Positions 1,883-60,250 are shown, numbered from the stretch's first letter. The stretch is DNA of 64,000 nt from a virus (IMGVR_UViG_3300032753_000007:32001-96000), one strand, 5' to 3'. Translations and numbers: made by a program. The notes: generated by a model from the letters alone, not told the origin.

Positions 1883-1995
1883 ATAAATTCAAATAATTTT
1901 AATATAGATATAGTTTACATGAATAAAGAATAATCTTTATTAACGTATCGTTACGTTTTAACGAATTAAATCCCTGATGAAGGGAAGGAAATAAC
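1883..1995 (+). promoter_or_regulatory. Cassette leader copy 1: conserved promoter, 5' hairpins and GATGA-loop hairpin abutting the SD
   Basis: ATAAATTCAAATAATTTTAATATAGATATAGTTTACATGAATAAAGA; hairpins 1922-1941 and 1942-1957; TCCCT-GATGA-AGGGA at 1971-1985, then AAGGA. Repeated at 5869, 35845 and 59714. Confidence 0.85.
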
Positions 1996-2331
1996 ATGAA
2001 AACTTTATATATCTGTAATGCCTTTTCTCTTCAAATGCTTGCGTTTGAAGAGAACATGATACGGGTAACCCCCGTACCATCTCCAGCCGCATGGTTGGAG
2101 AATGTCGAACCATTGTTCGACATTCTCCACTCTGCCGTCGGCCATGCCGACACAGCTGCTATATTTTCTTCCGTATTAAATATGGAAGTAAAAGAAAACA
2201 GGACTTCAATATCGATGTCGAAAGACATAGAGCTATTGGTGGGCCAGTACAGCGGCCCACGCTTGCCAGAGGGGGCAACAACGCTCCCTCAGGGAGCAAC
2301 AATTAAGTGGTTCCATGTTAAGCTAGTATAA
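1996..2331 (+). CDS. acrIII-1: AcrIII-1 family (DUF1874, SIRV1 gp29/YddF-like) viral ring nuclease, anti-type III CRISPR
   Basis: 111 aa with family motifs in order: LYICNAFSLQML, SAVGHADTA (catalytic GH), NR, VGQ..GPRLPEG, C-terminal KWF. Confidence 0.85.
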   Translation: MKTLYICNAFSLQMLAFEENMIRVTPVPSPAAWLENVEPLFDILHSAVGHADTAAIFSSVLNMEVKENRTSISMSKDIELLVGQYSGPRLPEGATTLPQGATIKWFHVKLV

Positions 2332-2383
2332 GCTAGCTTAACATGGTTAGCTAGGCATCAGTGATTAATCACTGATGCCTAGC
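2313..2383 (+). terminator. Tandem hairpins / intrinsic terminator of cassette 1
   Basis: 14-bp stem 2313-2346 overlapping the stop codon, then a perfect 34-bp palindrome 2350-2383 centred on GATTAATC, then a long T tract. Confidence 0.85.
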
Positions 2384-2419
2384 CACTTTTCTTTTTTCTA
2401 TTTTTTTTTTCATTTACAT

Positions 2420-2445
2420 TATATAACTATATTATTACTAAGGTA
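2420..2445 (+). promoter_or_regulatory. Putative phage early promoter (TATATTATT core)
   Basis: CTATATTATTACTAAG. The motif recurs upstream of several accessory operons and resembles the phiKZ early consensus TATATTAC. Confidence 0.55.
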
Positions 2446-2551
2446 AATAACATATCTATTAAGTTTAGGAGTATAAATAATGGATACGTTTTCAAAACCT
2501 AATACCAAAGAAATCATATAATGCAGTATATCACAATAAGGAATGAGTATA

Positions 2552-3181
2552 ATGAATTTTAATTCTCAACAAGCAAAAAATAACACAATAATACATAAAC
2601 CATATACGTCTTTGTATTTAAATCAGTTATTAGCAGATAATAAGTTAATACTTAATTCGCGTAGTGAAGAAGTATTCTTCCCGTTAGAGATTGCACCTGC
2701 TAACGCATCAGTTAAAATTCCATGTCTTTATGATAAATCTATTTGTAAAAATAAACCAATATCTTCTAAATGGTTTTATAAAATGGAAGATCTGTTTAAT
2801 GATTTATTAGATGAAGAAAACTGGGATTGGGGTTTACCTTATCCTACATTAAATGCGTTTCAAGCTTTCTTTAACGTGCTGAATGATTTAGACCCACCAC
2901 GTAAACCAACTATTGGCGTTACATCTGATAGTGCGTTAACAATGTATTGGATTAATACAAGAGCTACTGTAGTCATTAAATTAAAAGACATCGATAATAT
3001 AACTATGCGGTTTAAAGTAACTAATGATGATTTAGTAGAGCTAACATCCGATTACATTAATAAAGCAGAATCATTTAAATGGATTTTTGAAATTCATAAT
3101 TTAAATGATGTATTACTGGATATTAAAATAAAGTATAATATTATACCTAATGTTTTTAAAATTGACGGTTTAATTAATTAA
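2552..3181 (+). CDS. Hypothetical protein
   Basis: ORF track gives 2543..3181; the ATG at 2552 has better spacing to the AAGGA SD. Confidence 0.6.
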   Translation: MNFNSQQAKNNTIIHKPYTSLYLNQLLADNKLILNSRSEEVFFPLEIAPANASVKIPCLYDKSICKNKPISSKWFYKMEDLFNDLLDEENWDWGLPYPTLNAFQAFFNVLNDLDPPRKPTIGVTSDSALTMYWINTRATVVIKLKDIDNITMRFKVTNDDLVELTSDYINKAESFKWIFEIHNLNDVLLDIKIKYNIIPNVFKIDGLIN

Positions 3182-3193
3182 AGGAAATCAGTT

Positions 3194-3376
3194 ATGTCTA
3201 TTAAAGAAATACTTAAACTATTTGTTTATACATTAACACTATTTATTGCTGTTAATGTTTTGTTTTATATTCAATTAGCAACAGTTGATGCAGAAACACT
3301 TATTATATCAAGTATAGTTTGTGATTTGTATTTTTTAATCGTTTATCTTTATCGAGTGAGATTTCTATGGAAATGA
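3194..3376 (+). CDS. Small two-TM membrane protein
   Basis: AAGGA SD; 60 aa with two hydrophobic segments. Confidence 0.6.
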   Translation: MSIKEILKLFVYTLTLFIAVNVLFYIQLATVDAETLIISSIVCDLYFLIVYLYRVRFLWK

Positions 3377-3492
3377 TTAGGTATGTAAGATTTTGTATGA
3401 TCCCTATAGTAATTGGCATAATCGCATTTTTGATTATTACTTGGGATGGATGGAGTGATGACAATGGCGACGATTACAAGCATGATATATAA
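3367..3492 (+). CDS. Small single-TM peptide (41 aa, below track cutoff)
   Basis: MEMIRYVRFCMIPIVIGIIAFLIITWDGWSDDNGDDYKHDI*; fills the gap up to the DHFR SD. Confidence 0.5.
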   Translation: MEMIRYVRFCMIPIVIGIIAFLIITWDGWSDDNGDDYKHDI

Positions 3493-3504
3493 GGAAAACA
3501 GATT

Positions 3505-4335
3505 ATGAAAAAAATAGCATTAGTAATAGCCGCTACTGAAGATCATTTGATTGGATTAGATGGCAAAATACCCTGGCACATTACAAAAGACCTACAGCGA
3601 TTTAAACACGTCACTATGGGCGGTGTCGTTATCATGGGCAATAATACCTGGAAGTCATTAAACTGCAAGCCATTACCAGGTAGAATTAATATTGTTATTA
3701 CACATGAAGATAATCTATTGCCTATACCTGAAGTACCACAAACAGATGTAGCGTATAGATTTATGTTTAATTCAGATACACCTACACCTGAAGCCTTATT
3801 AAACTTACCACAATTTAATGATTATAAACTATTTATTATTGGCGGCGCTAGCCTATATAGTAAATTCTTTAAATACTGTAATGAAATACATTACACTCAT
3901 ATCCATGATATATTAGGTACTGAAATAGATCCTGAACATAAAGGCGTTTATTATGAGTTACCTGAAATACATGAAGATGAATGGACTCAAGCTATTGTAA
4001 GTGACTATACTGATCACTCCTACGAACTCTTTATAAAAGCCAAAACACCTGATACACTTGAAGAAGCGTGGAATAGGTTTTATGATATTTTAATATCTAA
4101 TAAGGATAACTACGATGAGCGTTTTGTAAAGGCCGTTAAAACGACCTATATGAAAGGTGCATTAGATGCATTACAGATTTATTCATTAATGATAATGGAT
4201 GGTAAATGTGATTGTCCATCAACTATAACTGAAAAATTAGTTGGTCCTATCACAGTAACACTGGGTGTCGATAAATTTATTGGGTTATTGACTAAGCTGA
4301 TTATGGAACCAACTGCAGAGAATGAAAATGAGTGA
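3505..4335 (+). CDS. folA: Dihydrofolate reductase with ~95-aa C-terminal extension
   Basis: IGLDGKIPWHITKDLQRFK, VIMGNNTWKSL, PLPGRINIVIT and FIIGGASLY are canonical DHFR motifs. Confidence 0.93.
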   Translation: MKKIALVIAATEDHLIGLDGKIPWHITKDLQRFKHVTMGGVVIMGNNTWKSLNCKPLPGRINIVITHEDNLLPIPEVPQTDVAYRFMFNSDTPTPEALLNLPQFNDYKLFIIGGASLYSKFFKYCNEIHYTHIHDILGTEIDPEHKGVYYELPEIHEDEWTQAIVSDYTDHSYELFIKAKTPDTLEEAWNRFYDILISNKDNYDERFVKAVKTTYMKGALDALQIYSLMIMDGKCDCPSTITEKLVGPITVTLGVDKFIGLLTKLIMEPTAENENE

Positions 4336-4383
4336 TGATAAATTACCAAATACTCTTATACCCATTCCAAAGAGAAAAAAATA

Positions 4384-4737
4384 ATGAATGACGATTACTT
4401 TATTTCAAAGAAAGCAAAACTTTTATTTATCTTGTTTAATACATCAGGTAAACTACGAAGAGAATTGTTAGGTGTAACTTATACTACGTATATAACTGTA
4501 GCTTCAGCTAAGCTGTGGTACGATGGTACACTTGCTGTATTAGAGTGTCCAACCACATTAAATGAAAATGAATGCGATAGTGAGGCAATGCTTTCAGCTA
4601 AACTACAATTAGCACGTGTATGTGAGGATGAGGGCGTTTATCATCCTGAAGTCATTTCGTCAGCAAAATCCATATTACGTTGGATTTATAAAGAAGAAAT
4701 TTTAACCTATCATCAATCTTACTTACAAACAAAATAA
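4384..4737 (+). CDS. Hypothetical protein
   Basis: 117-aa ORF in operon; preceded by an 18-aa coupled mini-ORF 4328-4384. Confidence 0.6.
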   Translation: MNDDYFISKKAKLLFILFNTSGKLRRELLGVTYTTYITVASAKLWYDGTLAVLECPTTLNENECDSEAMLSAKLQLARVCEDEGVYHPEVISSAKSILRWIYKEEILTYHQSYLQTK

Positions 4738-5009
4738 TGACATTAGTTATTCAAGAAAAATACTTCTCATTTGAAACAGAAACCATTAAAGAAAAAATAG
4801 AACGATTAACAGTACATCGCAATAACCTCATGGAGCAATATGGCAATACTGCTGCAAGTGAACGAGAGAAATGCGTGTTATTAGAATTTGATAAAGATAT
4901 TAAAAGACTCAAAACACAATTGAGTCCTAAAAATGCTGCTAAAGAAAAAATAGAAAAGGAAGAAATTGATAAAAAGAATTGGGGATATTTAGGTAAAGTA
5001 CATGGTTAA
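4737..5009 (+). CDS. Hypothetical coiled-coil protein
   Basis: TAATG-coupled 90-aa ORF, E/K rich. Confidence 0.6.
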   Translation: MTLVIQEKYFSFETETIKEKIERLTVHRNNLMEQYGNTAASEREKCVLLEFDKDIKRLKTQLSPKNAAKEKIEKEEIDKKNWGYLGKVHG

Positions 5010-5169
5010 AAAAGATATTGTTCTTGGCGGAACAAGATATAATGTTACATATGAGCAAAAAGAAAATGAAATCATAATTCATTCTTTAATTGCTGGTGAT
5101 AAACCCATGTCAGTAAATCTTTGTATGCCTAGCGTATTAGCGTTAATTAAAAAGAAGTTAACAGAATAA
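5002..5169 (+). CDS. Small hypothetical protein (55 aa, below track cutoff)
   Basis: AGGT SD; MVKKDIVLGGTRYNVTYEQ...KKKLTE*; ends just before a palindrome. Confidence 0.55.
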   Translation: MVKKDIVLGGTRYNVTYEQKENEIIIHSLIAGDKPMSVNLCMPSVLALIKKKLTE

Positions 5170-5177
5170 ACTAACCA

Positions 5178-5209
5178 CTATACTAGATGTCATATGACAT
5201 CTAGTATAG
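5178..5209. terminator. Perfect 32-bp palindrome (terminator/processing hairpin)
   Basis: CTATACTAGATGTCAT|ATGACATCTAGTATAG, intergenic. Confidence 0.7.
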
Positions 5210-5229
5210 CCTTATTATAGGATAATCAA

Positions 5230-5553
5230 ATGAAATTTATAGATATAATAAATCATTCAGTACCAAAACATAATCTAATTGATGTAGTGCATCATTCTTG
5301 GATAATGTGCTTTGGTCATAAAACATCAAGTAATAATGACTTTTGGTTTCCCTATCAAGGTTATGGCCCAAAAAGAATGCGTATACCTATTAGGTGTTTA
5401 TCTATTGATAATGATTGGACAAAAGTTTATAAGCGTTCAAGAAAACCGTTTTGTGATATAGTCGCAAAACGATATTATAATAAGCCTGTAGCTATATCAG
5501 GTAAGTGGATTAGTAAAAAAGAAAAAGCTAAACCATGGGGCTATATTAGATGA
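5230..5553 (+). CDS. Basic hypothetical protein
   Basis: AGGA SD; K/R/W-rich 107 aa. Confidence 0.55.
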   Translation: MKFIDIINHSVPKHNLIDVVHHSWIMCFGHKTSSNNDFWFPYQGYGPKRMRIPIRCLSIDNDWTKVYKRSRKPFCDIVAKRYYNKPVAISGKWISKKEKAKPWGYIR

Positions 5554-5882
5554 GCTATATTAATAATTGGCTATATCACCATTTGCGTGATATTCAGTTT
5601 AATAAGATACTAAAGATTAATAAAAAACGCCCTAGAGTAGAAAAGAGAATGAGGAAAAGAATTAAACCTACTAAAACTAAACTATTTATTAATGTAACCT
5701 ATCGATCTTATCCTCTTATAAGGTGGTATAAAGAGCTATTAAGAGAAGAGATAGATGATATTATTTTTAATAAACAAAGACTATGGATTAAAGATAGTAT
5801 TAGAGAGCGCTATAACTGGTACAGTGGGTTACGTGCTAGAGTGATTGCTTGTAAAAATAAGGATTTTTATAAATTCAAATAA
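5550..5882 (+). CDS. Highly basic hypothetical protein (3' end runs into cassette 2 leader)
   Basis: ATGA-coupled; the last codons YKFK* are formed by the conserved leader sequence ATAAATTCAAATAA. Confidence 0.55.
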   Translation: MSYINNWLYHHLRDIQFNKILKINKKRPRVEKRMRKRIKPTKTKLFINVTYRSYPLIRWYKELLREEIDDIIFNKQRLWIKDSIRERYNWYSGLRARVIACKNKDFYKFK

Positions 5883-5987
5883 TTTTCATATATATATAGT
5901 TTATATGAATAAAGAATAATCTTTATTTAGTTAACGTTAACTATTAACGCATTCATATGCTGCGATGAGCAGCAAGGATATACGATC
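5869..5987 (+). promoter_or_regulatory. Cassette leader copy 2
   Basis: ATAAATTCAAATAATTTTCATATATATATAGTTTATATGAATAAAGAATAATCTTTATT; palindrome 5928-5943; TGCTGC-GATGA-GCAGCA at 5958-5974, then AAGGA. Confidence 0.85.
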
Positions 5988-6326
5988 ATGAACAAGTTCA
6001 ATAAATTTGCCACTGACTTTTCAACAGGTTTCAAAGTGGGTTATCAAAACCCTCATCGCCTGCCAATGTATTGGGGAATGCTGAAGCTGCATTGGTACGC
6101 AGCTTTTATTAAAGCCTCATATGAGGCTAAACACTCAATTGAAAAACAAAAAGTCCCCCAGTGGGCACTGGGGATCGTGCACCGCGCTTGCGCGGTGCAC
6201 GATAAAAGAATCAACTGGGCTACCAAAAAATTTAATGGAATAGTCTTAGATGGTTGGATGGACTTCGGCTTAGAAGCGCTTAAAGCGCATCTAAGCAGAC
6301 AGATAAGGAGAGCCGAAAGAGGCTAA
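5988..6326 (+). CDS. Cassette 2 cargo: hypothetical protein (candidate anti-defence)
   Basis: 112-aa ORF behind the conserved leader; higher GC than its neighbours; coding sequence rich in hairpins. Confidence 0.75.
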   Translation: MNKFNKFATDFSTGFKVGYQNPHRLPMYWGMLKLHWYAAFIKASYEAKHSIEKQKVPQWALGIVHRACAVHDKRINWATKKFNGIVLDGWMDFGLEALKAHLSRQIRRAERG

Positions 6327-6337
6327 CCTTACGTCGG

Positions 6338-6410
6338 CTTCCAGATTACTTTAAAGTAATCTGGAAGTCAATACTGCTGCAGAGATTAATCTCTGCAGCA
6401 GTATTTTTTT
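6338..6410. terminator. Tandem perfect palindromes / bidirectional terminator
   Basis: 30-bp palindrome 6338-6367 and 36-bp palindrome 6370-6405 (centre GATTAATC) plus T tract, between convergent genes. Confidence 0.85.
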
Positions 6411-7259
6411 TTATGCTAAATCTTTATTTATTTTTTTGCTTGTTTCTGATTGGGCATAGCCTACTAGCTTTACTTGAAATAATACAATAGAAAACAGTTC
6501 TAATGCTTTAGCACAGTTTAAGATATATTCTCTTAATTGTTCTAATTTAGCTTCAGGTAATTCTTTTAGTATTTGCTCATGCTCTTTACTAGAGGTTAAT
6601 TTAGTAATGTAATCTAATAGTCTTTTTAATCTAGCGGTAATTTCAGCAGTATTTACTTTAGATGCAGTATCAATTAATAAGGTAACTTGTTTAAAGCATT
6701 TCTCATAGCCTTCTACATCACCGTATAAATCAATAAATAAACGATTATGAATACCATTATCAACGGACTGATTAAAATGCTTCATTAACTCATCATTGTG
6801 TTTTTTATAATCTAATGCATGTGGATCTAAGTTAATCCATACTTTATACAATGTTTCAGGTTTACTAATACAAATAGCTAACCATTGCTCTAATGGCTTT
6901 AATAATAAGTTATCTATATTACTCAATGTATCTAATGCTTGATGTAATGTCTCTACATAAGCAGGTAAGTCTTTATCAATATAAGCAGGTGCACAAACTG
7001 TATAGGTTGTTAATGCAGTTCTACCTAATTTATTGATATTATTAACACTCGTTTTAAAACCAGTATTATCTAAAAAGTTTAATCGTAGTGCTTTGTTATT
7101 TAACGAAGCTGATTCATCTGACAATACAGAGGTTACTTTAGTAAAGAAACCTACTGCAAAGTTTTTAACAGAAGCAAAGTCAAAGCCTTCCATAGCGACT
7201 TCAACTAAATCTTCATCTGTATATCCTAGATTTTTTAAAATAGCGTTATTTAAGCTCAT
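6411..7259 (-). CDS. Virion head protein with probable prohead-protease-cleaved propeptide
   Basis: Acidic N-terminus ending VAME|GF fits the phiKZ-type protease consensus (S/A/G)-x-E; divergent from uvsX. Confidence 0.6.
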   Translation of the reverse strand: MSLNNAILKNLGYTDEDLVEVAMEGFDFASVKNFAVGFFTKVTSVLSDESASLNNKALRLNFLDNTGFKTSVNNINKLGRTALTTYTVCAPAYIDKDLPAYVETLHQALDTLSNIDNLLLKPLEQWLAICISKPETLYKVWINLDPHALDYKKHNDELMKHFNQSVDNGIHNRLFIDLYGDVEGYEKCFKQVTLLIDTASKVNTAEITARLKRLLDYITKLTSSKEHEQILKELPEAKLEQLREYILNCAKALELFSIVLFQVKLVGYAQSETSKKINKDLA

Positions 7260-7338
7260 AGTTTTCTCATTTTATTTAATTAGTAACCCCCATTATTTTA
7301 TAGACAATCCGTTAACTTAACAAATTGGATATATAATA

Positions 7339-8838: not shown

Positions 8839-9130
8839 AGATGTTTTAACCACTACAATAGATATCATTGCTGATGTCTGTAGTCATCGTGCCAGTGAAC
8901 GCTTTAAAGCTATGGTAACTAAAGCACGTTTTACACTAGATACTGAATTATCAGAAGCATTACAAGTCAAAGCTATTAATGTATTTTGGCGTAATCTTTT
9001 ATTAGATTATCCTAATACCATGCAAATTAGAATGTGGCTATGTGATTGTGAAACCATTGCAGCCTATGCACATGCATTTAAGTATTCGTGGTTACCTATG
9101 TTAGATGGCATTGGTATTTTCCATGACTAG
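8831..9130 (+). CDS. Hypothetical protein
   Basis: Track gives 8798..9130; GAGG SD favours the ATG at 8831 (MTKDV). Confidence 0.6.
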   Translation: MTKDVLTTTIDIIADVCSHRASERFKAMVTKARFTLDTELSEALQVKAINVFWRNLLLDYPNTMQIRMWLCDCETIAAYAHAFKYSWLPMLDGIGIFHD

Positions 9131-25205: not shown

Positions 25206-27302
25206 ATGTTAAGTAAAAAAGAACCCTTTAATATATTTTTATTAAGTAATCAGAAATCACGTCTGATGGGCCTATTGCCTGTCCAATCAATGGACATTAA
25301 AAACATTGGTGGAGAATTTCATCCACAAGGGCTATACAGTATTGAAATATTTGGTGCACTAGGATCTAGGCAGCGTCAAAATAAACACGCCTATATTGAT
25401 ATGCGCTGTTATGTCATGCATCCTAAAATCTTTAGTGATTTAGAAAAACTAAAAGGACTCTATGCAGGCATCATGAGTAGAAAACAATATGCATTATGGG
25501 ATAATAACATAAAAGACTTTGTTAAGGCTGATGCCATTGATGGTAAAACAGGTTATTCTTTTTTTATGTCTCATTTTGAAGATATTCAGTTTCCACGTAA
25601 TGAGTCAGGCATACGCGATGCACGTATTGATCTATTAATACAAGAACAAAAAAAATGTATGTATCGCTATTTAGTTGTATTACCTGCAGGATTAAGAGAT
25701 TTGACTTATGATGAAAAAGGTCAAGAAGTAGAAGACGAAATTAATCCTATCTATAGAAAAATATTACGTACAGCTAATACTATTTTAGTAGATAATAACA
25801 ACATAAATCCAACAAATATTGATGTGGCTAGATGGACATTACAGACATCATTTAATGAGCTTTATGATTACATAGAATCAATCCTAAGTGGTAAGAAAGG
25901 ACTCATATTATCTAAATTAGCAGCACGCGCAGTGCATGGCGGTACACGGGCTGTATTGACGGCGGCGGATCCATCACCTGCTCATTTAAATGCGCCTGGT
26001 GGCTTTACTGTAAATGATACATTAGTGGGTTTACATCAATATATAAAAGGTACAGTAGAGTTAACTATTTATGGTATTAAAACAGGGTTAGCTAAAGACA
26101 TTATTGATAGATTACCTGGTGAAATATCATTAGTTAATAAAAGCACTTTAACTAAAATAACATTAAACCCATCAACTGATACAGTTACATTATGGGGTGG
26201 CGAAGTAGGATTAGAAAAACTAATTAATAAGTTTGAAAAACCTATTATACGACATAACCCTATAATGATTGATGGTCATTATTTAGCTTTGTTATATAGA
26301 GATAGTACGCATTTTAAAGTACTGTATGATATTACTGATTTACCTAAAGAGTTTAATAAAGCTAACGTAAAACCTATTACATGGGCTGAGTTTTTTTATT
26401 TAGCTGTTTATGAGCGCGTTAAAGATGTAGCAGTTTATGTTACGCGTTATCCTATTACTGAATTAGGTAGTATTTATCCATCTATGGTTAAATTACAAAC
26501 AACTGTACAGTGTGAAAAGCTAATACCATTAGATGATGATTGGAAACCTATAACTACTAATGTAAATGAAGTAACTGCCTACGCAATGCCTGTTTTAGGT
26601 AAACCCTTTTATGATAGTATCTCTGTACATACTACAAAGCTTCTTGAATTAAACGCAGATTATGACGGTGATAAAGTAAATGCTGTATTTGTAATGTCTA
26701 AAGAAGCAGTAGATGAAGTAAAAAAATACCATCATACAAAAACTACTTTTTTAAATAGTAGTGGTAGTTTACGGTATGGTGCTTGTGGTGTTAAAGATCC
26801 ATTAATTGGCTTGATATTACAAGGACTAACATCCGGTTTAGATAAAGATAAAATAATTACTATAGAGCCATTAAAAGAGAGTGAAACTAAAAATTATATT
26901 CAGTTAGTTGAACATAAATCACATGACCCTTCATTAGGTGGCATTGTTATTGATAAATTAAAAGCTGAATCTATTTATAGTAATTTATCTGATAGTGCTA
27001 ATATAGGCTATACATTGAAACGAGGTAGTGCTATAGTTGGATTTGCTGTTTTTATTCGATCAGGCGTTTCTATGTCAGGTGAATTATACTGTATTGTTTT
27101 AGATATTTATTCAGGTAATAACTACGGCTATAAAATACTTAAAACATTATTAAAGCAATTAAAAACACTAGGTGTTAAAGAAGTCATTACTACTGTAGGT
27201 AAAGACGCATCTGCTGGTATTGTTTTATGTAAAAAACTAGGCTTTATGTATGTGCCAATTAAATCACCTAATGTAATAGAATATCGTTTGAGGTTATTAT
27301 GA
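25206..27302 (+). CDS. Virion RNA polymerase beta' catalytic subunit (phiKZ gp180-like) with C-terminal GNAT-like domain
   Basis: GLYSIEIFG, VLPAGLRD, GKKG, TRYP and catalytic NADYDGD (aa ~483-489). The last ~150 aa resemble a GNAT fold. Confidence 0.88.
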   Translation: MLSKKEPFNIFLLSNQKSRLMGLLPVQSMDIKNIGGEFHPQGLYSIEIFGALGSRQRQNKHAYIDMRCYVMHPKIFSDLEKLKGLYAGIMSRKQYALWDNNIKDFVKADAIDGKTGYSFFMSHFEDIQFPRNESGIRDARIDLLIQEQKKCMYRYLVVLPAGLRDLTYDEKGQEVEDEINPIYRKILRTANTILVDNNNINPTNIDVARWTLQTSFNELYDYIESILSGKKGLILSKLAARAVHGGTRAVLTAADPSPAHLNAPGGFTVNDTLVGLHQYIKGTVELTIYGIKTGLAKDIIDRLPGEISLVNKSTLTKITLNPSTDTVTLWGGEVGLEKLINKFEKPIIRHNPIMIDGHYLALLYRDSTHFKVLYDITDLPKEFNKANVKPITWAEFFYLAVYERVKDVAVYVTRYPITELGSIYPSMVKLQTTVQCEKLIPLDDDWKPITTNVNEVTAYAMPVLGKPFYDSISVHTTKLLELNADYDGDKVNAVFVMSKEAVDEVKKYHHTKTTFLNSSGSLRYGACGVKDPLIGLILQGLTSGLDKDKIITIEPLKESETKNYIQLVEHKSHDPSLGGIVIDKLKAESIYSNLSDSANIGYTLKRGSAIVGFAVFIRSGVSMSGELYCIVLDIYSGNNYGYKILKTLLKQLKTLGVKEVITTVGKDASAGIVLCKKLGFMYVPIKSPNVIEYRLRLL

Positions 27303-35844: not shown

Positions 35845-35938
35845 ATAAATTCAAATAATTTTCATATATATATAGTTAATATGAATAAAGACAATTCCGT
35901 CTTTTCAAACGCTGCGATGAGCAGCAAGGAAAAATATT
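35845..35938 (+). promoter_or_regulatory. Cassette leader copy 3
   Basis: ATAAATTCAAATAATTTTCATATATATATAGTTAATATGAATAAAGACAATTCCGTCTTT; GCTGC-GATGA-GCAGC at 35911-35925, then AAGGA. Confidence 0.85.
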
Positions 35939-36310
35939 ATGTTTGTTTTAAAATCAGTACAACCGTTCTCTAATATAGATAACGGAAAAGTAAACTTGAC
36001 AATAACAATAACGCTAAACGGAGGTGTGGTTACAGCAAAAAGAGTAGAGTGCAGATATCTGCACGGGGTGTCCACTAACAAGCTTGTAGTAGAGAAAGAA
36101 ATCACCATTGTAGAAATGGAAGCTCTGCTTCAGTTCTACAACATTATGGACTATCTAACTCATCTCACTGATGAGTTAGTAAGAATTGAAGAAATGCCTA
36201 ATAACCACTTACATATAAGGGACTTAGAAGAGAAAATTAAGGAAATGGAAAAAACCAGTTCCTTACTAAGGAAGGCATTTCCAGATAGGATAAAAGACTT
36301 TATCTGGTAA
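35939..36310 (+). CDS. Cassette 3 cargo: hypothetical protein (candidate anti-defence)
   Basis: 123-aa ORF behind the conserved leader; internal hairpins. Confidence 0.75.
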   Translation: MFVLKSVQPFSNIDNGKVNLTITITLNGGVVTAKRVECRYLHGVSTNKLVVEKEITIVEMEALLQFYNIMDYLTHLTDELVRIEEMPNNHLHIRDLEEKIKEMEKTSSLLRKAFPDRIKDFIW

Positions 36311-36318
36311 GACTTCAG

Positions 36319-36362
36319 CTACCGCAGAGAGATTAATCTCTCTGCGGTAGTATTTTTTTTTT
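36319..36362 (+). terminator. Cassette 3 terminator, perfect 32-bp palindrome
   Basis: CTACCGCAGAGAGATT|AATCTCTCTGCGGTAG plus long T tract. Confidence 0.85.
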
Positions 36363-47277: not shown

Positions 47278-48951
47278 ATGACACAAATTGTTTTTGAAAT
47301 TGATATAAATAGAGGTTTTAGATGCTGGTATATTAGTCAAATCTATATGGGCCCTACTAATCCTGGATTAGGTAGAATTGTACCTAATGTTGATGATGTA
47401 GTGTTTGATTGGTCTGCTGGTATTTATAGAGTTATTTCTGTAGATGCGGTTACTAACTTATCTGTATTAGTATTAATGTTTCCAATAGAAGCACTAGTAC
47501 AAGGTGGCTTATCACCTAGTAATGACTTTTATAAATGGCAACCTAGTATACAAGAAGTCGCTTATTTAAATACCGCAGTTACACCGTATCAAATGGCATT
47601 AGACGCTAAGTACTTTATTGTAGGCATTGAAACGTCTTCAGTTGTTTTATTTAGAGGCACTGATACTTCATCAACAGGCACTGTAATTAGTGCAGTCTAT
47701 GATTCATTGAATAATTACATTGGAAATACAGTTAAGGTATATCCCATTGATCCTACTAATTTAGCCATTACACGACCAAATGCCTTTAACTGCAGTACTG
47801 CATTAAACGATGGAGAAATCGTTACCTTAGTAGGCTATACTGCTTCTAATACGCCGTCTATGGAACACCCTTTTTTAGTTAAGAACTCATCTGCAATACA
47901 GCCAATTAATAATGCAGTGAGTACATTAGTAGACGTTCAATTAGTCAGTAGGTTATTAGATAGTACCGTAAGTAATCAGATTAATGTACCGGCTAATATA
48001 CCCATTCAGTCTAGTGATTATAGTGCTAATTTAATTTATGCAGATGGAACAACTAAAGCTATTAGCATTGATAATGTTAAGTGTAAGTTACAAGGCACAG
48101 TAGCATTAAATACAGCCGTAGTAGGTGTATATGGTACATTAGTTTTAACATATTACCCAGCTAATAATGAGCCCTATATTAATGGCAGTAACCCATCTAT
48201 AGCATCATTATCACATATATACAATGTAAATGTAATGCCCAATACATTAAATAGTGGGTTTAAAGTTTATGTAATTCCTAATTATAACGTTGATTATAAT
48301 AGTTATCAGTTGTCGTTTTATTTAACCACATTAGATTATAGTACAGTGACATTACTTAATCCATCACAATACACATTAAGTGAAATTGGTGGAAATCCTA
48401 TTAACTATAGTTCAAGTGGTAGGATGCAATCATTAGAAATACAAGTGCCTATTACATCGAGTATGGCTAATGGGTTTAGTGGCTATACATTTGTTCAAGC
48501 ATTTGGTATACAGTTTAATAAACCTGCTCAAAATCCATGGATTATTGATTACCTTAATACAAATAACAATATGTATGGTAGTGGGATATATTTTAATTTA
48601 GTAGCTCAAAACAATGCTTATGTCATTGATATGTCAATGGGGTTAACGTCAGTAACTACATGGTTAAGTAGTTTATTTGCTCCGTTATATCCTATTTATA
48701 ATACTGCTTTGACAACAACAGCGCCTACACCTACACACATTTCATTAAGCTATAATGGCTATACTACATCGCCTATATTACTCAGCAGTAATTGGAATGT
48801 AGTCGTAACAACAGCACTCTTTAATACGAGTACTGTATTTACATTTAATGATTCAAGTAACGTTACTATTTCATGGCTAACCGCCACTGATCAAACTGAT
48901 GTATTTTCAACAATTGCCTTATCTAGTGTAATACTATTAATGTCTAATTAG
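47278..48951 (+). CDS. Virion structural protein (phiKZ gp26-like)
   Basis: 557 aa; W...IY.G....G..VPNVDD.V N-terminus; synteny. Confidence 0.65.
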   Translation: MTQIVFEIDINRGFRCWYISQIYMGPTNPGLGRIVPNVDDVVFDWSAGIYRVISVDAVTNLSVLVLMFPIEALVQGGLSPSNDFYKWQPSIQEVAYLNTAVTPYQMALDAKYFIVGIETSSVVLFRGTDTSSTGTVISAVYDSLNNYIGNTVKVYPIDPTNLAITRPNAFNCSTALNDGEIVTLVGYTASNTPSMEHPFLVKNSSAIQPINNAVSTLVDVQLVSRLLDSTVSNQINVPANIPIQSSDYSANLIYADGTTKAISIDNVKCKLQGTVALNTAVVGVYGTLVLTYYPANNEPYINGSNPSIASLSHIYNVNVMPNTLNSGFKVYVIPNYNVDYNSYQLSFYLTTLDYSTVTLLNPSQYTLSEIGGNPINYSSSGRMQSLEIQVPITSSMANGFSGYTFVQAFGIQFNKPAQNPWIIDYLNTNNNMYGSGIYFNLVAQNNAYVIDMSMGLTSVTTWLSSLFAPLYPIYNTALTTTAPTPTHISLSYNGYTTSPILLSSNWNVVVTTALFNTSTVFTFNDSSNVTISWLTATDQTDVFSTIALSSVILLMSN

Positions 48952-49273: not shown

Positions 49274-49276
49274 ACC

Positions 49277-52381: not shown

Positions 52382-52417
52382 ACTCTTTATCCACCTGATT
52401 TGCAATAAAGTACGGCA

Positions 52418-52454: not shown

Positions 52455-52584
52455 GTACCAGCTTTTTAACAATTAAACTTATTGCCAGTAAGTTTACTTT
52501 CACCCCTTACCACAAGGATATCTTTAAGTTATTATGTTCATAACTTTCACATAATATAATGATTATCTTTTATTTTTTTAATCA

Positions 52585-53814: not shown

Positions 53815-53821
53815 TATTCAC

Positions 53822-54568: not shown

Positions 54569-54630
54569 GGCATTACCTCAGCTAAAAAATGAATACACAT
54601 TATAACTTTATGTATGGCTAGTTATATCAA

Positions 54631-54660
54631 GATAATTTAAATGATATATTATTACTATGC
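54631..54660 (+). promoter_or_regulatory. Putative early promoter
   Basis: GATAATTTAAATGATATATTATTACTATGC. Confidence 0.6.
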
Positions 54661-54690
54661 TTTATACTACAACTAACTAGGAAAAATTCA

Positions 54691-55125
54691 ATGAAAGAAA
54701 AAATAAGCTCTATTGGCATATATAGTGTTGAGCTAGACATTATTGTAGACAAAGTAATGGTAAACGCCTGTCTTTTTGCCTCTGGTGAAATAGGCATCTA
54801 TAGGAAGGTTAATAAGGCTGCACGCAGTGGGTATGCTAAAGTAAACCCATTGCAATTTATTGAATATAGGAATCATTGTGAAAAGATAAACCATATGGCA
54901 CAGTTGTATAAACGCATTCAGCATCTAAACACCTATTTAGATATAAGTGAGGATTCAATAGCGTTTATAGAGTATAAACTATTTACACGCGAACGCATTG
55001 TTAGCGCACTCTATCGGATAAGAAAACTGTATGAAGAAATAACAACATTTACTGATAGGCTTATTTATAGCGGTCTAGATGATATTATTATTCCATTACC
55101 ACTAGACCTTTTATCATCACTTTAA
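54691..55125 (+). CDS. Hypothetical protein
   Basis: AGGA SD; 144 aa. Confidence 0.6.
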   Translation: MKEKISSIGIYSVELDIIVDKVMVNACLFASGEIGIYRKVNKAARSGYAKVNPLQFIEYRNHCEKINHMAQLYKRIQHLNTYLDISEDSIAFIEYKLFTRERIVSALYRIRKLYEEITTFTDRLIYSGLDDIIIPLPLDLLSSL

Positions 55126-55164
55126 TTTATTTACTCTTTACCACAATTAAATAAGGAAAATCTA

Positions 55165-56166
55165 ATGCCTAAAAATACAATTCACGTTTATGCTTGCGGC
55201 GGTGCTGGAATTAACAGAGCCATTAGTATTGAACTACCCATCAATGCAGCTGGGTTTGCTACACCCCATACCACACTCATTGACACCAGTACATCAAACT
55301 TACCAAAACAACTACCCTCTAACTTTACACAATACATGATACCAGGTGTTGATGGTGCTGGTAAGAATAGAGGATTTGCACACAATGTTTCTATTGCTCA
55401 TTTAGATAAGATATTGATTGATAATAAACAAGGCGATGTCAATGTGGTTATATTCAGCATGAGTGGTGGTAGTGGTTCAGTTATTGGCCCTATGTTAATT
55501 AAGCGGTTATTAGAGCGTGATTGCTCTGTTATCAGCTTAGGAATCGCTAACTTAACCAGTGCTGTTGAAGCTAACAATACGCGCTCCACGCTGCTAACAT
55601 TATCAAATGTCAGTAGCAATGTAACTGGCGTACCATTGGTTTGTGGTATGTATGAAAATACAAGTATGACACCACGCAGTGCAGTAGATGCTAAAATCGA
55701 TAATGATTTAAGAGCTATCGCGATGTTATGTAGCGGTGAAAATATTGCATTAGATAAAATGGATATTTATAACTGGCTACATTTTAACAAAATTACGTCA
55801 GTGCCTTCACAATTGGTAGAGCTACACATTGATGTAGTCACCATAGAAAATGAACCCCATTATTCACCTGAGTACGCGAATGTAATTAGCACTGCATCGG
55901 TATTGCATTCTCAAGACTTAATTGAGCCTGCTTTAAATCAGGCTTATGGTTGCGTCGGTTATTTATCGCCTGCTACATTAGAAGCCTCTGATTCTTCTAA
56001 ACCGTCACTACACTTCATTTTATCTAATGCTAATTTAGTATCACGATTAGAAAACTATGAAGCTATATTAAAATCGTTTAAAGAAAAAGAAGCAGCGACT
56101 GCAGCTGTTAAACTAATTGATGTACCTGTTATAATTGGAGCTGATAAAGACGGCTTTATTATATAA
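55165..56166 (+). CDS. phuZ: PhuZ tubulin/FtsZ-like spindle protein
   Basis: YACGGAGIN, IDTS, GAGKNR, tubulin signature SGGSGS, LD..D; C-terminal tail DKDGFII. Confidence 0.93.
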   Translation: MPKNTIHVYACGGAGINRAISIELPINAAGFATPHTTLIDTSTSNLPKQLPSNFTQYMIPGVDGAGKNRGFAHNVSIAHLDKILIDNKQGDVNVVIFSMSGGSGSVIGPMLIKRLLERDCSVISLGIANLTSAVEANNTRSTLLTLSNVSSNVTGVPLVCGMYENTSMTPRSAVDAKIDNDLRAIAMLCSGENIALDKMDIYNWLHFNKITSVPSQLVELHIDVVTIENEPHYSPEYANVISTASVLHSQDLIEPALNQAYGCVGYLSPATLEASDSSKPSLHFILSNANLVSRLENYEAILKSFKEKEAATAAVKLIDVPVIIGADKDGFII

Positions 56167-56172
56167 TCATGT

Positions 56173-56203
56173 AGAGGTGACTACCTAGGTAGTCACCTCT
56201 TTT
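56173..56203 (+). terminator. Perfect 28-bp palindrome plus T tract
   Basis: AGAGGTGACTACCT|AGGTAGTCACCTCT. Confidence 0.75.
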
Positions 56204-56217
56204 AATGGAGATTAATA

Positions 56218-56676
56218 ATGAATTTTATATTTGATATACGACAATTAGCATGTGAAACAGTAGGCATACTAAATATGTATACGCCTAACTTAGGTACGGA
56301 CAAACCACAAATAGATGACATGGAATATCTAATATGGTGCATATTAAATTCACAAATAGAAAGAAAGCTAAATAAGCTAGTCTTTAAAAAGACGAGTAGT
56401 GCTGTGCATTATCGCAATTACATTGAACGATATCGCCTATATCTAAATCCTACTAAAAAAATAGTAGAATCAATGACTGGCTTTATAGCCTATAGCCAAA
56501 TAATTGAAGAGTATATCAAACAAGATACATTTGAGTATTGGATCATTACTAAAGGAATGGGAGAAAATAAAGAAATCTATCAGCTAGAATCAGCAGGTGA
56601 TTATCGAATATTAGAATGGGAAGCAGATCATCTTATTAATGGCATATATGTTTCAAGAAGACGCACCATTCCCTGA
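56218..56676 (+). CDS. Conserved hypothetical protein
   Basis: GGAG SD; C-terminal GDYRILEW motif. Confidence 0.6.
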   Translation: MNFIFDIRQLACETVGILNMYTPNLGTDKPQIDDMEYLIWCILNSQIERKLNKLVFKKTSSAVHYRNYIERYRLYLNPTKKIVESMTGFIAYSQIIEEYIKQDTFEYWIITKGMGENKEIYQLESAGDYRILEWEADHLINGIYVSRRRTIP

Positions 56677-57070
56677 AGCAGTATCTTATATTTTTTCTGC
56701 TAATGCATTAAAAGAAATAGTCAATGAGATTATTGCGCCCTCTATTGGTAGCTTTAGTAGTATCATTGATTTAGAGCCATACTTAATGAATGAGTTATTT
56801 AAAGAATTACAAAAAGAAAACTATTATGAAATACCAAACATTGCACAGTATTTAAATGAATGGCCTATGCCTAGTGACATACGTGAATATATTCTTTATG
56901 AATTATCAGTTGTTTGTAAATCAATTGCCAATAACATTATTAATGATTTAAAAAATAAACTATTAGTCGATTTTATAATCATTAAAAACTACACTATCAT
57001 AGCCAACGTTGTTTATTATTCAGAGAGAACATCATGCCAGAATCTATTACAATATCCCAAATACAATTAA
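56639..57070 (+). CDS. Hypothetical protein
   Basis: 143-aa ORF overlapping both neighbours. Confidence 0.55.
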   Translation: MAYMFQEDAPFPEAVSYIFSANALKEIVNEIIAPSIGSFSSIIDLEPYLMNELFKELQKENYYEIPNIAQYLNEWPMPSDIREYILYELSVVCKSIANNIINDLKNKLLVDFIIIKNYTIIANVVYYSERTSCQNLLQYPKYN

Positions 57071-57459
57071 ATGACATTATATCCTTTACTACTTATGGTG
57101 TAGGTGGCATCCTTCAAATTACTAATGGCACTGTCATTGGAATTGAAACAGGCACTAATTTAAGAAATCCTACTGCTGCTGCTGCTGAACACACTAATCT
57201 ATTTGGTGCTATTCCACAAAGCACTAGTAACCCTATCCCAAATGATTATAGAAAATATAATTATTTATTAATTCAAAAAACTGATAATACGTTAGTAGAA
57301 GTAGGGTTTCCATGGATTAATCAAAGCACCTTAACACGTTTAGCCTATGGTACTTTAACAGTGGTCATTGAAGATTTTACTACGAGTAATTTACCTATAT
57401 TGACTGCGTTCTTATTAGCACAAGGTTGGACAAACAACACCATTACTTATAGCAATTAA
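57034..57459 (+). CDS. Conserved hypothetical protein (beta-rich)
   Basis: GAGAG SD; IPNDY..Y.YL...GFPWI motif. Confidence 0.6.
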   Translation: MPESITISQIQLNDIISFTTYGVGGILQITNGTVIGIETGTNLRNPTAAAAEHTNLFGAIPQSTSNPIPNDYRKYNYLLIQKTDNTLVEVGFPWINQSTLTRLAYGTLTVVIEDFTTSNLPILTAFLLAQGWTNNTITYSN

Positions 57460-57467
57460 ATGCATTA

Positions 57468-57501
57468 TACACAGCCATTGCATAATTGCAATGGCTGTGT
57501 A
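57468..57501. terminator. Hairpin
   Basis: TACACAGCCATTGCA-taat-TGCAATGGCTGTGTA. Confidence 0.7.
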
Positions 57502-57551
57502 ATTGTAGGCGTTTCTATTATTCTATACCTAAGATAAATTGAGAATAATTA

Positions 57552-59717
57552 ATGAGTGATGCTTTTGTTAAACCACCTGACCACTATCATAGAGACCTAG
57601 ATATTAAAGGCAATGCTGAGCTAATAGCAGCTAAATATTTACAAGTCAAAACAGGACAATCATTTGATGTTTGTTTAGATTTTGTTAAAAAAGAAACAAG
57701 TGATAATGGTTTATTTCCGTTAGCGCCTAAACATTTAAAAGTATTAAGAAAAGATCAAAATCAAGATAGAGTAAAAGACGTTTATAGCATTGATAAGATA
57801 TTAGGTATAGCAACGCATGAGAAAGCAGCACTAACGGGTAATATGTGCGTGTATAGCTCAAATGAAAATATACCATGTAGTACGGCTAATTATATAAATG
57901 ATAAGTTAAATCTAAGAGCTTCTATTAAAGAGAAAGAAAAGATTGCTGAACAAGAAGGAAATAAACTATTAGCAATGACCTGTAACAATGGTCAAACTGC
58001 TGCAAAGCTATTAAATAACTCAGTATCAGGTGCTAGAGTATCACCTTATAATCCCTTACATTTAAAAACAGCACATTCTTCATTAACCTCTACCACTATG
58101 TTGTCAGTTAGTTATAGTAACTCATCTACTGAAAGATTCTTATCTGGAAATAGGCATTATTATAATCTCTCAGTCACTATTGACGCTATCCTATCTGTTA
58201 CATTAAATACAGATTATCGAGCCTTAGAAGCGACTGTCGTTAAGTATAGGCTATATATACCTAATACGTCAGATGTATTTAAAAGCATTAAGCGCTGTAG
58301 TAAGTTCTATTGGAAAAATACACATTGGGATGATGAGTTAATAGATATTATTAACGGATTAACTGATTTAGAAAAATGTGCTTTTTTATATACAGGTGAT
58401 TTTTTTAATCTCTCTAAACACAATCCAGACTTTGTAAGAGGTTTGTTATTTGAAGGTATACAGCCTGCTGATACAAATAGAGATATTGATTCAGATGCTA
58501 TTGTAAAATCTGCTGATGCAGATATTATTGCATTATGTTCAGTATTATGTTCTGAGTTTTTAACAGGCACAATACCTGCTAAAATTAAAGCAACTAACCC
58601 AGAGCAATACAAGTACTTTGCTTGTACTATACTAGATGTTTGTAATTACATGAATAAATACAGTGATTTGTTTAGCACATTATTTGCTACTGTTAATATG
58701 CCATTAATGATTAGTGAGTTTCCTAATTCAATTAGACGCTCTGTAATGGGGTCTGATACAGATTCTAATATGTTTACTGTACAAGAATGGATAGTTTGGT
58801 TATTTGGTAAAGTTATTTTTTCTATTGAATCCACTAAAATAGCACAACTATTGTGTTACTTAGTATCTGAAGTAACCGCACATTCATTAATATCCTTATC
58901 ACGCCAATTAGGCGTTAAAGATAAAGAATTATATCGATTAAAAATGAAAAGTGAATTTAGCTTTGCTATTTATGGTAGAGCAAATAAAGCTAAGCACTAT
59001 GCTACATTAATGACCTCACGTGAAGGCAATGTATTCTCAACACCTAAGTTTGAAATTAAAGGTGTGGGATTAAAAGATTCTAAAATACCTAAATCTATTA
59101 TAGGTCGCTTAGAAGAAGAATTTATTTATTTGTTTACTAAAATAACAAATAACAAAGGTATTGATATTTACCTATTATTACAACGGATTGCTAACTTAGA
59201 ACACTCAATTATGGAAGATTTAAATAAAGGCGATATTCAGTATTTATCAATGGTTAAAATAGCTAATAAAGAAGCTTATAAAAAACCAATGGCTAGTAAG
59301 TACATGCATTATGACTTATGGCAAAATGTTTATGAAAAAAAGTTTGGATCAGTAGGCGCGCCGCCTTATCAATGCGTTAAAATATCTACTACATTAATTA
59401 ATAAAACCAGTATAGAAAAATGGATAGCTGCATCAGATAGTAGCTATAGAAATGAATTAGAAGAGTGGTTAATTAGAAATAATAAGACATCATTAAAGAT
59501 GTTATTAGTGCCATTAGAGTTGTTTAAAACAGGATTGCCTAAAGAGTTTTCTGACTTGATTGATAAACGTAAAATTATAAGTGAGTTAATTTCAGGCTAT
59601 TATACATTATTAGAAATCATAGGGTTTTATGTACGTAATGAATCCACATCAATTCTATTAATGGATGATATAGAATATAGACCAGAATATGGATTACCAG
59701 GTGATGAATTAAAATAA
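57552..59717 (+). CDS. Family-B DNA polymerase, polymerase subunit (phiKZ gp50-like)
   Basis: Q.AAKLLNNSVSGA (motif B), SDTDS (motif C), KHY and KGV; no N-terminal exonuclease motifs evident (split enzyme in this group). Confidence 0.85.
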   Translation: MSDAFVKPPDHYHRDLDIKGNAELIAAKYLQVKTGQSFDVCLDFVKKETSDNGLFPLAPKHLKVLRKDQNQDRVKDVYSIDKILGIATHEKAALTGNMCVYSSNENIPCSTANYINDKLNLRASIKEKEKIAEQEGNKLLAMTCNNGQTAAKLLNNSVSGARVSPYNPLHLKTAHSSLTSTTMLSVSYSNSSTERFLSGNRHYYNLSVTIDAILSVTLNTDYRALEATVVKYRLYIPNTSDVFKSIKRCSKFYWKNTHWDDELIDIINGLTDLEKCAFLYTGDFFNLSKHNPDFVRGLLFEGIQPADTNRDIDSDAIVKSADADIIALCSVLCSEFLTGTIPAKIKATNPEQYKYFACTILDVCNYMNKYSDLFSTLFATVNMPLMISEFPNSIRRSVMGSDTDSNMFTVQEWIVWLFGKVIFSIESTKIAQLLCYLVSEVTAHSLISLSRQLGVKDKELYRLKMKSEFSFAIYGRANKAKHYATLMTSREGNVFSTPKFEIKGVGLKDSKIPKSIIGRLEEEFIYLFTKITNNKGIDIYLLLQRIANLEHSIMEDLNKGDIQYLSMVKIANKEAYKKPMASKYMHYDLWQNVYEKKFGSVGAPPYQCVKISTTLINKTSIEKWIAASDSSYRNELEEWLIRNNKTSLKMLLVPLELFKTGLPKEFSDLIDKRKIISELISGYYTLLEIIGFYVRNESTSILLMDDIEYRPEYGLPGDELK
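59220..59258 (+). repeat. 39-bp segment of the polymerase gene repeated at 59966-60004
   Basis: TTAAATAAAGGCGATATTCAGTATTTATCAATGGTTAAA vs TTAAATAAAGGGGATATACAATATTTATCAATGGTTAAA; 36/39 identical, both encode LNKGDIQYLSMVK. Confidence 0.9.
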
Positions 59718-59809
59718 ATTCAAACTTTTTTTCATATATATATAATTTATATGAATAAAGACAATTCCGTCCTTACATTAACGCTGCAATGAGCAGCAGG
59801 AGCTTTACA
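59714..59809 (+). promoter_or_regulatory. Cassette leader copy 4
   Basis: ATAAATTCAAACTTTTTTTCATATATATATAATTTATATGAATAAAGACAATTCCGTCC; GCTGC-AATGA-GCAGC at 59783-59797, then AGGAG. Confidence 0.85.
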
Positions 59810-60202
59810 ATGAGTTTAGTCGCCAAGAGCAACCACAACAAATTTAATAACAAATACGACGGTGACGTATTTCCACTGTTGACGGAAACAATATTTACTC
59901 AGCATGAGGCTGATATATCGGAACATAGCCTAGTAAAATTGAAAATCGAACTCATTTATGAGAACTTAAATAAAGGGGATATACAATATTTATCAATGGT
60001 TAAACTCCGTGAGGACCTTGTATACCAAACAAGGTACATAAGCGATCTTAAAGAAAAAATAGTAAAGGATCACGAGTTTTTACTTAAAACTCCGTGTAAG
60101 GGTACTTTAGAAACTAGCGTTGAGGCTGCATTAAATGCAGCATATGATGATCATCTACAATGGCTAGCCGAATTTATAGCCGATATGTGTAGTTCTTCTT
60201 AA
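59810..60202 (+). CDS. Cassette 4 cargo: hypothetical protein containing a DNA-polymerase-derived peptide
   Basis: True start is probably 59810 (AGGAG SD); the track start 59789 lies in the leader hairpin loop. Confidence 0.75.
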   Translation: MSLVAKSNHNKFNNKYDGDVFPLLTETIFTQHEADISEHSLVKLKIELIYENLNKGDIQYLSMVKLREDLVYQTRYISDLKEKIVKDHEFLLKTPCKGTLETSVEAALNAAYDDHLQWLAEFIADMCSSS

Positions 60203-60210
60203 CCATTTAT

Positions 60211-60250
60211 TACCACTATAGAGTTTAAACTCTATAGTGGTATTTTTTTT
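60211..60250. terminator. Cassette 4 terminator, perfect 32-bp palindrome
   Basis: TACCACTATAGAGTTT|AAACTCTATAGTGGTA plus T tract, between convergent genes. Confidence 0.85.

Follow-up and report, generated by a model that had tools for sequence, protein, structure and literature searches.

The 64,000-nucleotide stretch of viral DNA analyzed here (the window) spans bases 32001-96000 of a single contig of 109,752 bp and 33% G+C, IMGVR_UViG_3300032753_000007, and contains four dispersed units, u1 to u4, in each of which a small gene stands between a shared promoter-like leader and a palindromic terminator; a fifth unit, u0, lies upstream of the window. We propose, at a probability of roughly 0.7, that these units carry small, fast-evolving accessory genes in a reused frame of promoter, folded leader and terminator, in the manner of the promoter/stem-loop cassettes of T4-type phages and of phage morons. 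The contig is part of the genome of an uncultured phiKZ-like jumbo phage; its DNA polymerase was assigned to PF20286, which holds divergent family B polymerases (PolB) of jumbo phages, and is ~33% identical to those of ~300 phiKZ-like phages, and the contig also codes for Peptidase_S80, phiKZ_gp29PR, DUF7193 and DUF7194. The record is a linear fragment, ~41% complete by CheckV. DNA of the phage occurs in lake, freshwater and pond metagenomes, and the public runs listed for it included no RNA runs.

An earlier reading of the DNA alone (the sequence-only reading) had described the four units at 1883-2383, 5869-6405, 35845-36350 and 59714-60242, and we located all four there (positions are those of the window unless given as genome positions, which follow the contig). 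They share a leader block of ~47 nt that starts with ATAAATTCAAA and ends with ATGAATAAAGA, found at 1883-1929 in u1 (by alignment and hidden Markov model, HMM), 5869-5915 in u2, 35845-35891 in u3 and 59714-59761 in u4, each on the + strand. The blocks of u1 to u3 differ by 0-3 mismatches and that of u4 by one 1-nt indel and a few changes, and in u3, as in a unit on a separate contig, L023, the conserved stretch is longer by ~15 nt at its upstream end. The stop codons of the open reading frame (ORF) 5550-5882 and of the DNA polymerase gene fall within the leaders of u2 and u4, respectively, in agreement with the description of these units as starting on upstream stops. Each of the four holds a single ORF of 111-130 amino acids on the + strand, and the four products are mutually unrelated, as had been reported: cargo 1 (1996-2331, 111 amino acids), cargo 2 (5988-6326, 112 amino acids), cargo 3 (35939-36310, 123 amino acids) and cargo 4 (59810-60202, 130 amino acids, with its start at 59810, which is not the first in-frame ATG).

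The count of four proved too low for the contig as a whole. A leader HMM scan returned five strong copies and one weak copy, all on the + strand, and nothing else prominent. The fifth full leader belongs to u0 (genome 24088-25397, 7.9 kb upstream of the window), a multi-gene unit with ORFs of 136, 31 (hydrophobic), 124 and 27 amino acids, after which come several hairpins in a row and a palindromic terminator. After its last sizeable ORF, a ~200-nt non-coding chain of 7-8 abutting hairpins, with the terminator last, occupies L002 6170-6395 (genome 25169-25394), and this chain is preceded by a GAUGA hairpin, a Shine-Dalgarno (SD) sequence and a 27-codon ORF. The weak copy is a degenerate sixth leader (61340-61387, + strand) that precedes ORFs from 61405.

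Beyond the leader block, the shared frame continues into a structured 5' untranslated region (UTR). The 5' hairpin described earlier was found in each of the four units; its left arm is the conserved leader end, and its right arms are of three different compensating kinds. In the minimum free energy fold of u1, this hairpin (1922-1941) is followed by a second leader hairpin (1942-1957), and the corresponding pair occupies 5907-5945 in u2; the 5' hairpin of u3 lies at 35887-35904, and that of u4, which is weak, lies within a structured region at 59757-59802 (all on the + strand). A (T/A)AACG motif, also described in these leaders, is not universal, being missing from u0 and from the copy on another contig, L013.

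The claim of an RATGA-loop hairpin at the ribosome site was borne out. This hairpin has 5 bp and a GAUGA loop (AAUGA in u4) and abuts A/AGGA directly; hairpin and SD together span 1971-1990 in u1 and 5959-5978 in u2, and the hairpins of u3 (35911-35925) and u4 (59783-59797) are followed by the SD within regions ending at 35930 and 59802, all on the + strand. The contig holds six such 5-bp RAUGA-loop hairpins against ~1 expected by chance, all on the + strand and all within cassettes, and each of the six runs into A/AGGA with the start codon 6-11 nt further on. With the L013 and L023 copies the total is eight, all eight perfectly paired, and four of the five base pairs show changes on both sides; as a control on covariation, no shuffle and no slid register matched this level of pairing. 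A search of viral contigs with the pattern GCTGC-RATGA-GCAGC gave seven matches, which were chance occurrences within high-GC genes, and a search of the whole genome against all Rfam families gave none.

When metagenomes were scanned with a degenerate leader pattern, two of the 38 matches were genuine by HMM score, those on L013 and L023, both from one sample, and these contigs have the leader and terminator alone in common with the phage contig. Across the paralogous frames, leaders were 87-100% identical and terminators 73-100%, the cargo was at background level, and identity fell to background exactly at the frame edges. In u2 and the L023 unit, 87-100% identity extended over ~150 nt, comprising the leader plus ~14 initial codons, and the terminators were identical, with background identity between, and the two cargos share the N-terminus alone; u3 and the L013 unit showed the same pattern of conserved frame and background-level cargo. 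Contigs from further lake runs carry more copies of leader and terminator on other flanks, with other cargo starts, and read depth at the leader and terminator was 2-3x that of the flanks.

The placement of L013 and L023 was aided by G001, a 220-kb relative with a PolB 47% identical to that of the contig and 53 collinear ORFs. Both carry phiKZ-type core genes that are missing from the contig; a 1012-amino-acid virion protein of L013, for example, matches the same phiKZ-like phages and has a homologue in G001 and none in the contig. The genes of L013 and L023 are collinear with G001 at 14-67 kb and those of the contig at 96-208 kb, with similar identities. We had first read the two contigs as frame transfer between unrelated phages, a reading that we rejected since the contig is a 41% fragment and their genes complement it on G001. 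Most simply, the gene order suggests that L013 and L023 come from this phage or a near-identical one, which would bring the cassette count to at least seven.

The cargos are also set apart from the backbone by composition. G+C at third codon positions (GC3) was 0.34-0.47 in the contig cargos (0.47 in cargos 1 and 2, 0.38 in cargo 3 and 0.34 in cargo 4) versus 0.13-0.31 in all other credible contig ORFs, which substantiates the elevated GC noted previously; the six contig cargo ORFs have the highest GC3 of the credible ORFs, with other high values only in two tiny ORFs (messy first 2 kb). All 11 cargo ORFs from the contig, L013, L023 and G001 fall within 0.34-0.47. The units are extremely folded as RNA, with z-scores against dinucleotide shuffles of -16.4 (u1), -12.4 (u2), -7.7 (u3) and -6.8 (a G001 cassette), compared to +0.7 for a neighboring backbone gene. 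Long stems are numerous within the cargo coding regions and include G-U pairs, which indicates selection on the RNA strand. The coding regions of cargos 1 and 2 contain perfect 11-13-bp stems with 4-nt loops, and examples of coding-region stems lie at genome 34025-34054, 34100-34125 and 38174-38203.

The cassette sites differ between the two phages. The synteny comparison revealed no G001 homologue of any of the six contig cargos, and the sites themselves differ; the u0 site corresponds to a ~110-bp gap in G001, no cassette follows the G001 PolB gene, the variable gap that holds u3 contains a G001 cassette with another cargo, and a G001 cassette follows the homologue of gene 47278-48951, where the contig has an AT-rich 102-amino-acid ORF. 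At the u0 site, a 5.6-kb block between two conserved genes (genome 24084-29681) comprises u0 and five genes without a G001 homologue, ends in a terminator, and is replaced in G001 by ~110 bp between the same two genes (~198945-199057).

The cargos also diverge rapidly between close strains. In the pond strain X6, the backbone is 2-3% diverged, whereas cargo 1 is ~17% diverged with a further 118 nt unaligned, and the match to cargo 2 is 13-15% diverged with 160 nt unaligned, such that cargos evolve several-fold faster than core genes. A single X6 contig reaches into cargo 1 from the upstream gene by way of the u1 leader, and u1 is therefore at an unchanged locus; the X6 leader has consensus bases at 1901 and 1918, two positions at which our contig departs from consensus, and its second leader hairpin carries a compensatory pair of changes, C1944T and G1955A. 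The contig matching cargo 2 is unlinked to the u2 flanks. X6 was the only close strain compared, and no cargo swap between close strains was seen; uncovered stretches and a joint of 4339 to 5981 (21 nt on its shorter side) in the contigs compared are not interpretable.

These comparisons bear directly on the possibility that the units constitute an ordinary promoter regulon. The leader would then define a single temporal promoter class with a conserved 5' UTR; vertical inheritance, functional constraint and gene conversion would explain the similarity of the copies, and no cassette would be mobile. The promoter core of the leader reads ATTCAAAT-N-ATTTTCAT-N-TATATA, and G001 has ATTCAAAT-T-ATTTTCAT-G-TATATA at at least six sites; its recurrence in a relative at this distance argues for a lineage-wide, non-sigma70 promoter class. 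At three of the G001 sites the leaders, each ~100 nt long, are nearly identical and form a 5' hairpin, and the hairpin next to the SD is of another kind; some G001 copies stand before GC-rich ORFs of 153 and 213 amino acids that match no family. Other G001 copies of the core precede AT-rich small hydrophobic peptides or an ordinary 441-amino-acid gene, and the degenerate sixth leader has its positional counterpart in a full G001 leader, at an orthologous operon start divergent from the phrog_3938 gene. A vertically inherited regulon would accommodate such conservation, and with it the retention of u1 and of a cargo-2-like gene in X6. It does not account well for near-identity over 90-150 nt, far longer than any promoter core would be and ending abruptly where the frame ends, for cargo composition that is unlike the backbone in every unit, for a collinear relative that lacks the cargos and has its cassettes elsewhere, or for the leader, first ~14 codons and identical terminator that surround unrelated cargo in u2 and L023. 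We consider a pure regulon possible but unlikely.

Several of these observations nonetheless weigh against the proposal of a reused cassette frame. The occurrence of the core before ordinary AT-rich genes in G001 implies that the pattern is partly that of a plain promoter regulon. X6 keeps the u1 locus on one contig, and its cargo-2-like gene is on an unlinked contig. L013 and L023 would belong to the same phage by complementarity of gene content, as opposed to physical linkage. The many long coding-region stems with their G-U pairs mean that the high G+C may reflect selection for RNA structure as much as, or rather than, foreign origin. Finally, we infer, rather than observe, the promoter activity of the leader, its start site, its timing class and the polymerase that reads it.

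The sequence-only reading had gone further and taken the frame as a standardized early-expression module for counter-defense cargo, with cargos 2-4 as candidate anti-defense proteins. The modular part of this proposal holds, in that autonomous promoter-leader-gene-terminator modules stand at gene ends; the early timing is presumed only, and the idea of a leader reserved for counter-defense cargo is contradicted by the G001 core copies upstream of AT-rich small peptides and the ordinary 441-amino-acid gene. One observation in its favor is cargo 1, which is by membership a ring nuclease of the AcrIII-1/DUF1874/Csx16 type, with its activity a prediction from sequence. As had been proposed, cargo 1 matched Pfam PF08960 above the cut-off (32.1 bits versus 26), as well as phrog_5063, the PADLOC Csx16 model (2.5e-7) and PDB entry 2X4I (1.5e-5); the alignment covers the whole domain, the RLxEG segment is kept, and the catalytic histidine (H47 of SIRV1 gp29) is conserved as GH in cargo 1 and in 2X4I, as opposed to GA in the 6SCF variant.

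The remaining cargos yielded no comparable assignment. Cargos 2 and 3 are orphans; no relatives of cargo 2 or of the u0 protein u0B were found, and the ESM Atlas gave nothing usable for either. Cargo 3 has no relative among 1.84 billion representatives, and its only relative is the L013 cargo, at 25% identity. The u0 protein u0A has nine relatives in the small family phrog_12854, which is marked by GxGG...DID...D.H motifs, and a PDB profile search with this family gave no match; the structural model of u0A, with a predicted local distance difference test (pLDDT) score of 94, has a Pol-beta-type nucleotidyltransferase fold nearest to TM1012, ANT(2'') and MenT, and u0A is accordingly modeled as a small, minimal nucleotidyltransferase. 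Cargo 4 has one homologue, P0003, which is 62% identical and lies on a 200,407-bp contig; its AlphaFold model (pLDDT 63) was too weak for a fold search. None of the cargos matched NCBIfam, and none other than cargo 1 matched the defense library.

Cargo 4 shares a 39-nt stretch with the DNA polymerase gene (59966-60004 and 59220-59258, respectively), 36 of 39 positions being identical and in frame in both. The P0003 homologue lacks this patch and is completely different over residues ~46-65, and the patch therefore looks like local gene conversion as opposed to a conserved feature. A role for cargo 4 as a polymerase decoy was rejected on the same ground.

Set against these results, a dedicated counter-defense delivery system in which the frame is reserved and every cargo is anti-defense is an unlikely account. 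It draws on the ring nuclease, on the small, orphan and fast-diverging nature of the cargos, and on the finding that type III CRISPR (clustered regularly interspaced short palindromic repeats) systems act against nucleus-forming jumbo phages at the level of mRNA (bioRxiv 10.1101/2022.06.20.496707). Only 1 of 11 cargos, however, has an anti-defense assignment; the others match no anti-defense family or fold, nothing marks cargos 2-4 as anti-defense proteins, and in G001 the promoter core also precedes membrane peptides and ordinary genes. Small orphan early genes in phiKZ-like phages usually serve host takeover, which likewise counts against a purely anti-defense set. As a lead by association, an anti-defense role for the orphans is reasonable and would be consistent with the action of type III CRISPR on the mRNA of nucleus-forming jumbo phages.

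A more speculative variant, to which we assign a low probability, would make the frame a chassis for genes that act in the cytoplasm against RNA-guided immunity. The dense, strand-specific coding-region stems would then hide the exported mRNA from type III and type VI guides and from RNases, the invariant RAUGA loop would act as the operator of a phage regulator, and the orphan cargos would be new counter-defense proteins.

The leader could in principle be a host sigma-factor promoter, making the units morons that are read by the host polymerase independently of the phage program. The AT-rich, UP-element-like upstream region, the TG ahead of an A/T-rich hexamer and the moron-like anatomy of the units would suit such an arrangement. 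In our tests, however, sigma70 matches in the leader were no better than chance and the copies had no good match in common, and a search of 185,579 prokaryote species genomes with the leader pattern gave 11 matches, all attributable to chance by HMM score; the pattern was not matched in IMG/VR viral contigs. The phage moreover has polymerases of its own, in that the motif NADYDGD is present in two beta'-like proteins (25206-27302 in the window, and L004 3004-4542, genome 99004-100542), neither of which was matched by a Pfam model and which are presumably the catalytic subunits of two phage RNA polymerases; this is consistent with the two multisubunit polymerases carried by phiKZ-like phages (PMC7598289). 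A second promoter-like motif is repeated in the genome and has TATG or CATG at its end, and the 3' half of the leader resembles it; phiKZ late promoters have TATG at the start site, and in phiKZ early promoters an AT-rich extended -10 is preceded by a T-rich element (PMC7598289, PMC8244752). We infer that the leader is read by a phage polymerase and give host-read morons little credence.

That second motif, TATATTATTACTATGC or ATTATTTACATG, occurs at 2429, 33943, 36381, 36503, 54646 and 52043 in the window and at genome 96783, 40-110 nt upstream of genes and on the + strand every time; two copies directly follow the u1 and u3 terminators, and L023 has a similar site ahead of PhoH. A further intergenic motif, CTTTTACCA or CCTTACCA, was observed at genome 27155, 27199, 27953, 87136 (window 55136) and 96916 and at window 36936 and 38056. 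Several start codons have it 15-30 nt upstream; it occurs within genes too, and may be another promoter class or leader element.

At their 3' ends, all four units carry the perfect 32-36-nt palindrome and T tract attributed to them, on the + strand. In u1 and u2, tandem hairpins (of 15 bp in u1) span 2313-2400 and 6336-6412, and the palindromes at 2350-2383 and 6370-6405 with their T tracts are the terminators; those of u3 and u4 span 36319-36362 and 60211-60250. A hairpin immediately before the leader was seen in u3 and L023 only; the terminators stand at unit 3' ends, and the promoter-adjacent hairpin is that of the 5' UTR. The palindromic terminator is not cassette-specific because ordinary operons end in the same style, with like terminators at genome 29646, 45184, 65883, 81277, 98942 and 101218. 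That the units are integron- or transposon-like mobile elements with the palindromes as site-specific recombination sites is highly improbable. Long perfect palindromes at each unit end, most with an ATTAAT center, would suit it, but the same kind of palindrome and T tract closes ordinary operons, no recombinase adjoins any unit among the neighbors searched, target duplications are absent, the G-U pairs in the stems indicate function at the RNA level, and integron cassettes would instead show an imperfect attC hairpin and a nearby integrase.

Under the reading of a reused cassette frame, the parts of the unit would act together as follows. A phage-specific, non-sigma70 promoter with a core conserved across the lineage would start the transcript, probably near the conserved TATG, and the 5'-terminal stem-loop would stabilize the message. 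The RAUGA hairpin would leave the ribosome site accessible within an mRNA that is otherwise densely folded, or may be the operator of a regulator, and one or two long-stem intrinsic terminators would close the unit. The cargos would be GC-rich, lineage-specific, fast-evolving small genes held in variable gaps between conserved core genes, among which a ring nuclease of the AcrIII-1 type would be a sensible weapon where exported phage mRNA faces type III CRISPR. Repeated frames of 50-150 nt would offer homology for recombination and thereby permit gene gain, loss and replacement without disturbing neighboring operons, a step that is suggested by the different cargo in paralogous frames and by the sites that differ from G001.

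The closest known kinds are the promoter-early stem-loop (PeSL) regulatory cassettes of T4-type phages (Arbiol et al. 2010, PMC2839356; Comeau et al. 2014, PMC4122927) and, more generally, phage morons; the RNA features are unusual. The PeSL analogy drawn in the sequence-only reading is sound in outline, with repeated promoter and stem-loop frames, orphan cargo, variable regions and homology that recombination could use. As in PeSL cassettes, a repeated ~100-nt non-coding promoter with stem-loops and an SD precedes small orphan genes, the units lie in variable regions that separate conserved modules, with unrelated genes inside homologous frames, and the composite motif is present in many copies (five in the contig and two on the sister fragments). 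The units differ in that the promoter lacks the strong sigma70-like early character of PeSL, in a phage with its own polymerases; the terminator stands at the unit 3' end as opposed to being fused to the promoter; an additional covarying RAUGA hairpin lies at the ribosome site; the cargo coding RNA is GC-rich and extremely structured; and the units are dispersed singly rather than arrayed.

The definition of morons (Juhala et al. 2000; Hendrix et al. 2000) reportedly comes from temperate lambdoid phages, where they have host promoters and are expressed by the prophage. The units resemble them as autonomous promoter-gene-terminator modules of deviant composition, here of GC3, that lie between two neighboring genes with their own putative promoter and terminator and are missing from relatives; morons, by contrast, are not known to have a frame common to one another. 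The leader also recalls the early promoters of phiKZ-like phages (PMC7598289; PMC8244752) as a lineage-specific AT-rich motif upstream of small early genes, with a T-rich element ahead of a block like an extended -10 and a start motif of the TATG type known from phiKZ late promoters, but it has another sequence, only 5-7 copies, and conservation that continues through a structured 5' UTR. Cargo 1 in turn is like AcrIII-1/Crn2/Csx16 (DUF1874; SIRV1 gp29, PDB 2X4I and 6SCF) in its whole-domain alignment, catalytic histidine and RLxEG segment, and differs in being encoded by a densely folded mRNA in a bacterial phiKZ-like phage, its activity being a predicted one.

Collectively, these findings would extend the cassette shuffling described for promoter/stem-loop frames of T4-type phages to a phiKZ-like lineage that carries its own polymerases. 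The leader, the RAUGA hairpin and the GC-rich folded coding RNA together provide a searchable signature for accessory, probably host-interaction genes of uncultured jumbo phages, and nominate a short list of small proteins for anti-defense screens. The folding of the coding RNA, with z-scores down to -16, is unusual and merits separate study. With the predicted ring nuclease, a countermeasure to type III CRISPR would be present among phages whose known weak point is RNA-targeting CRISPR.

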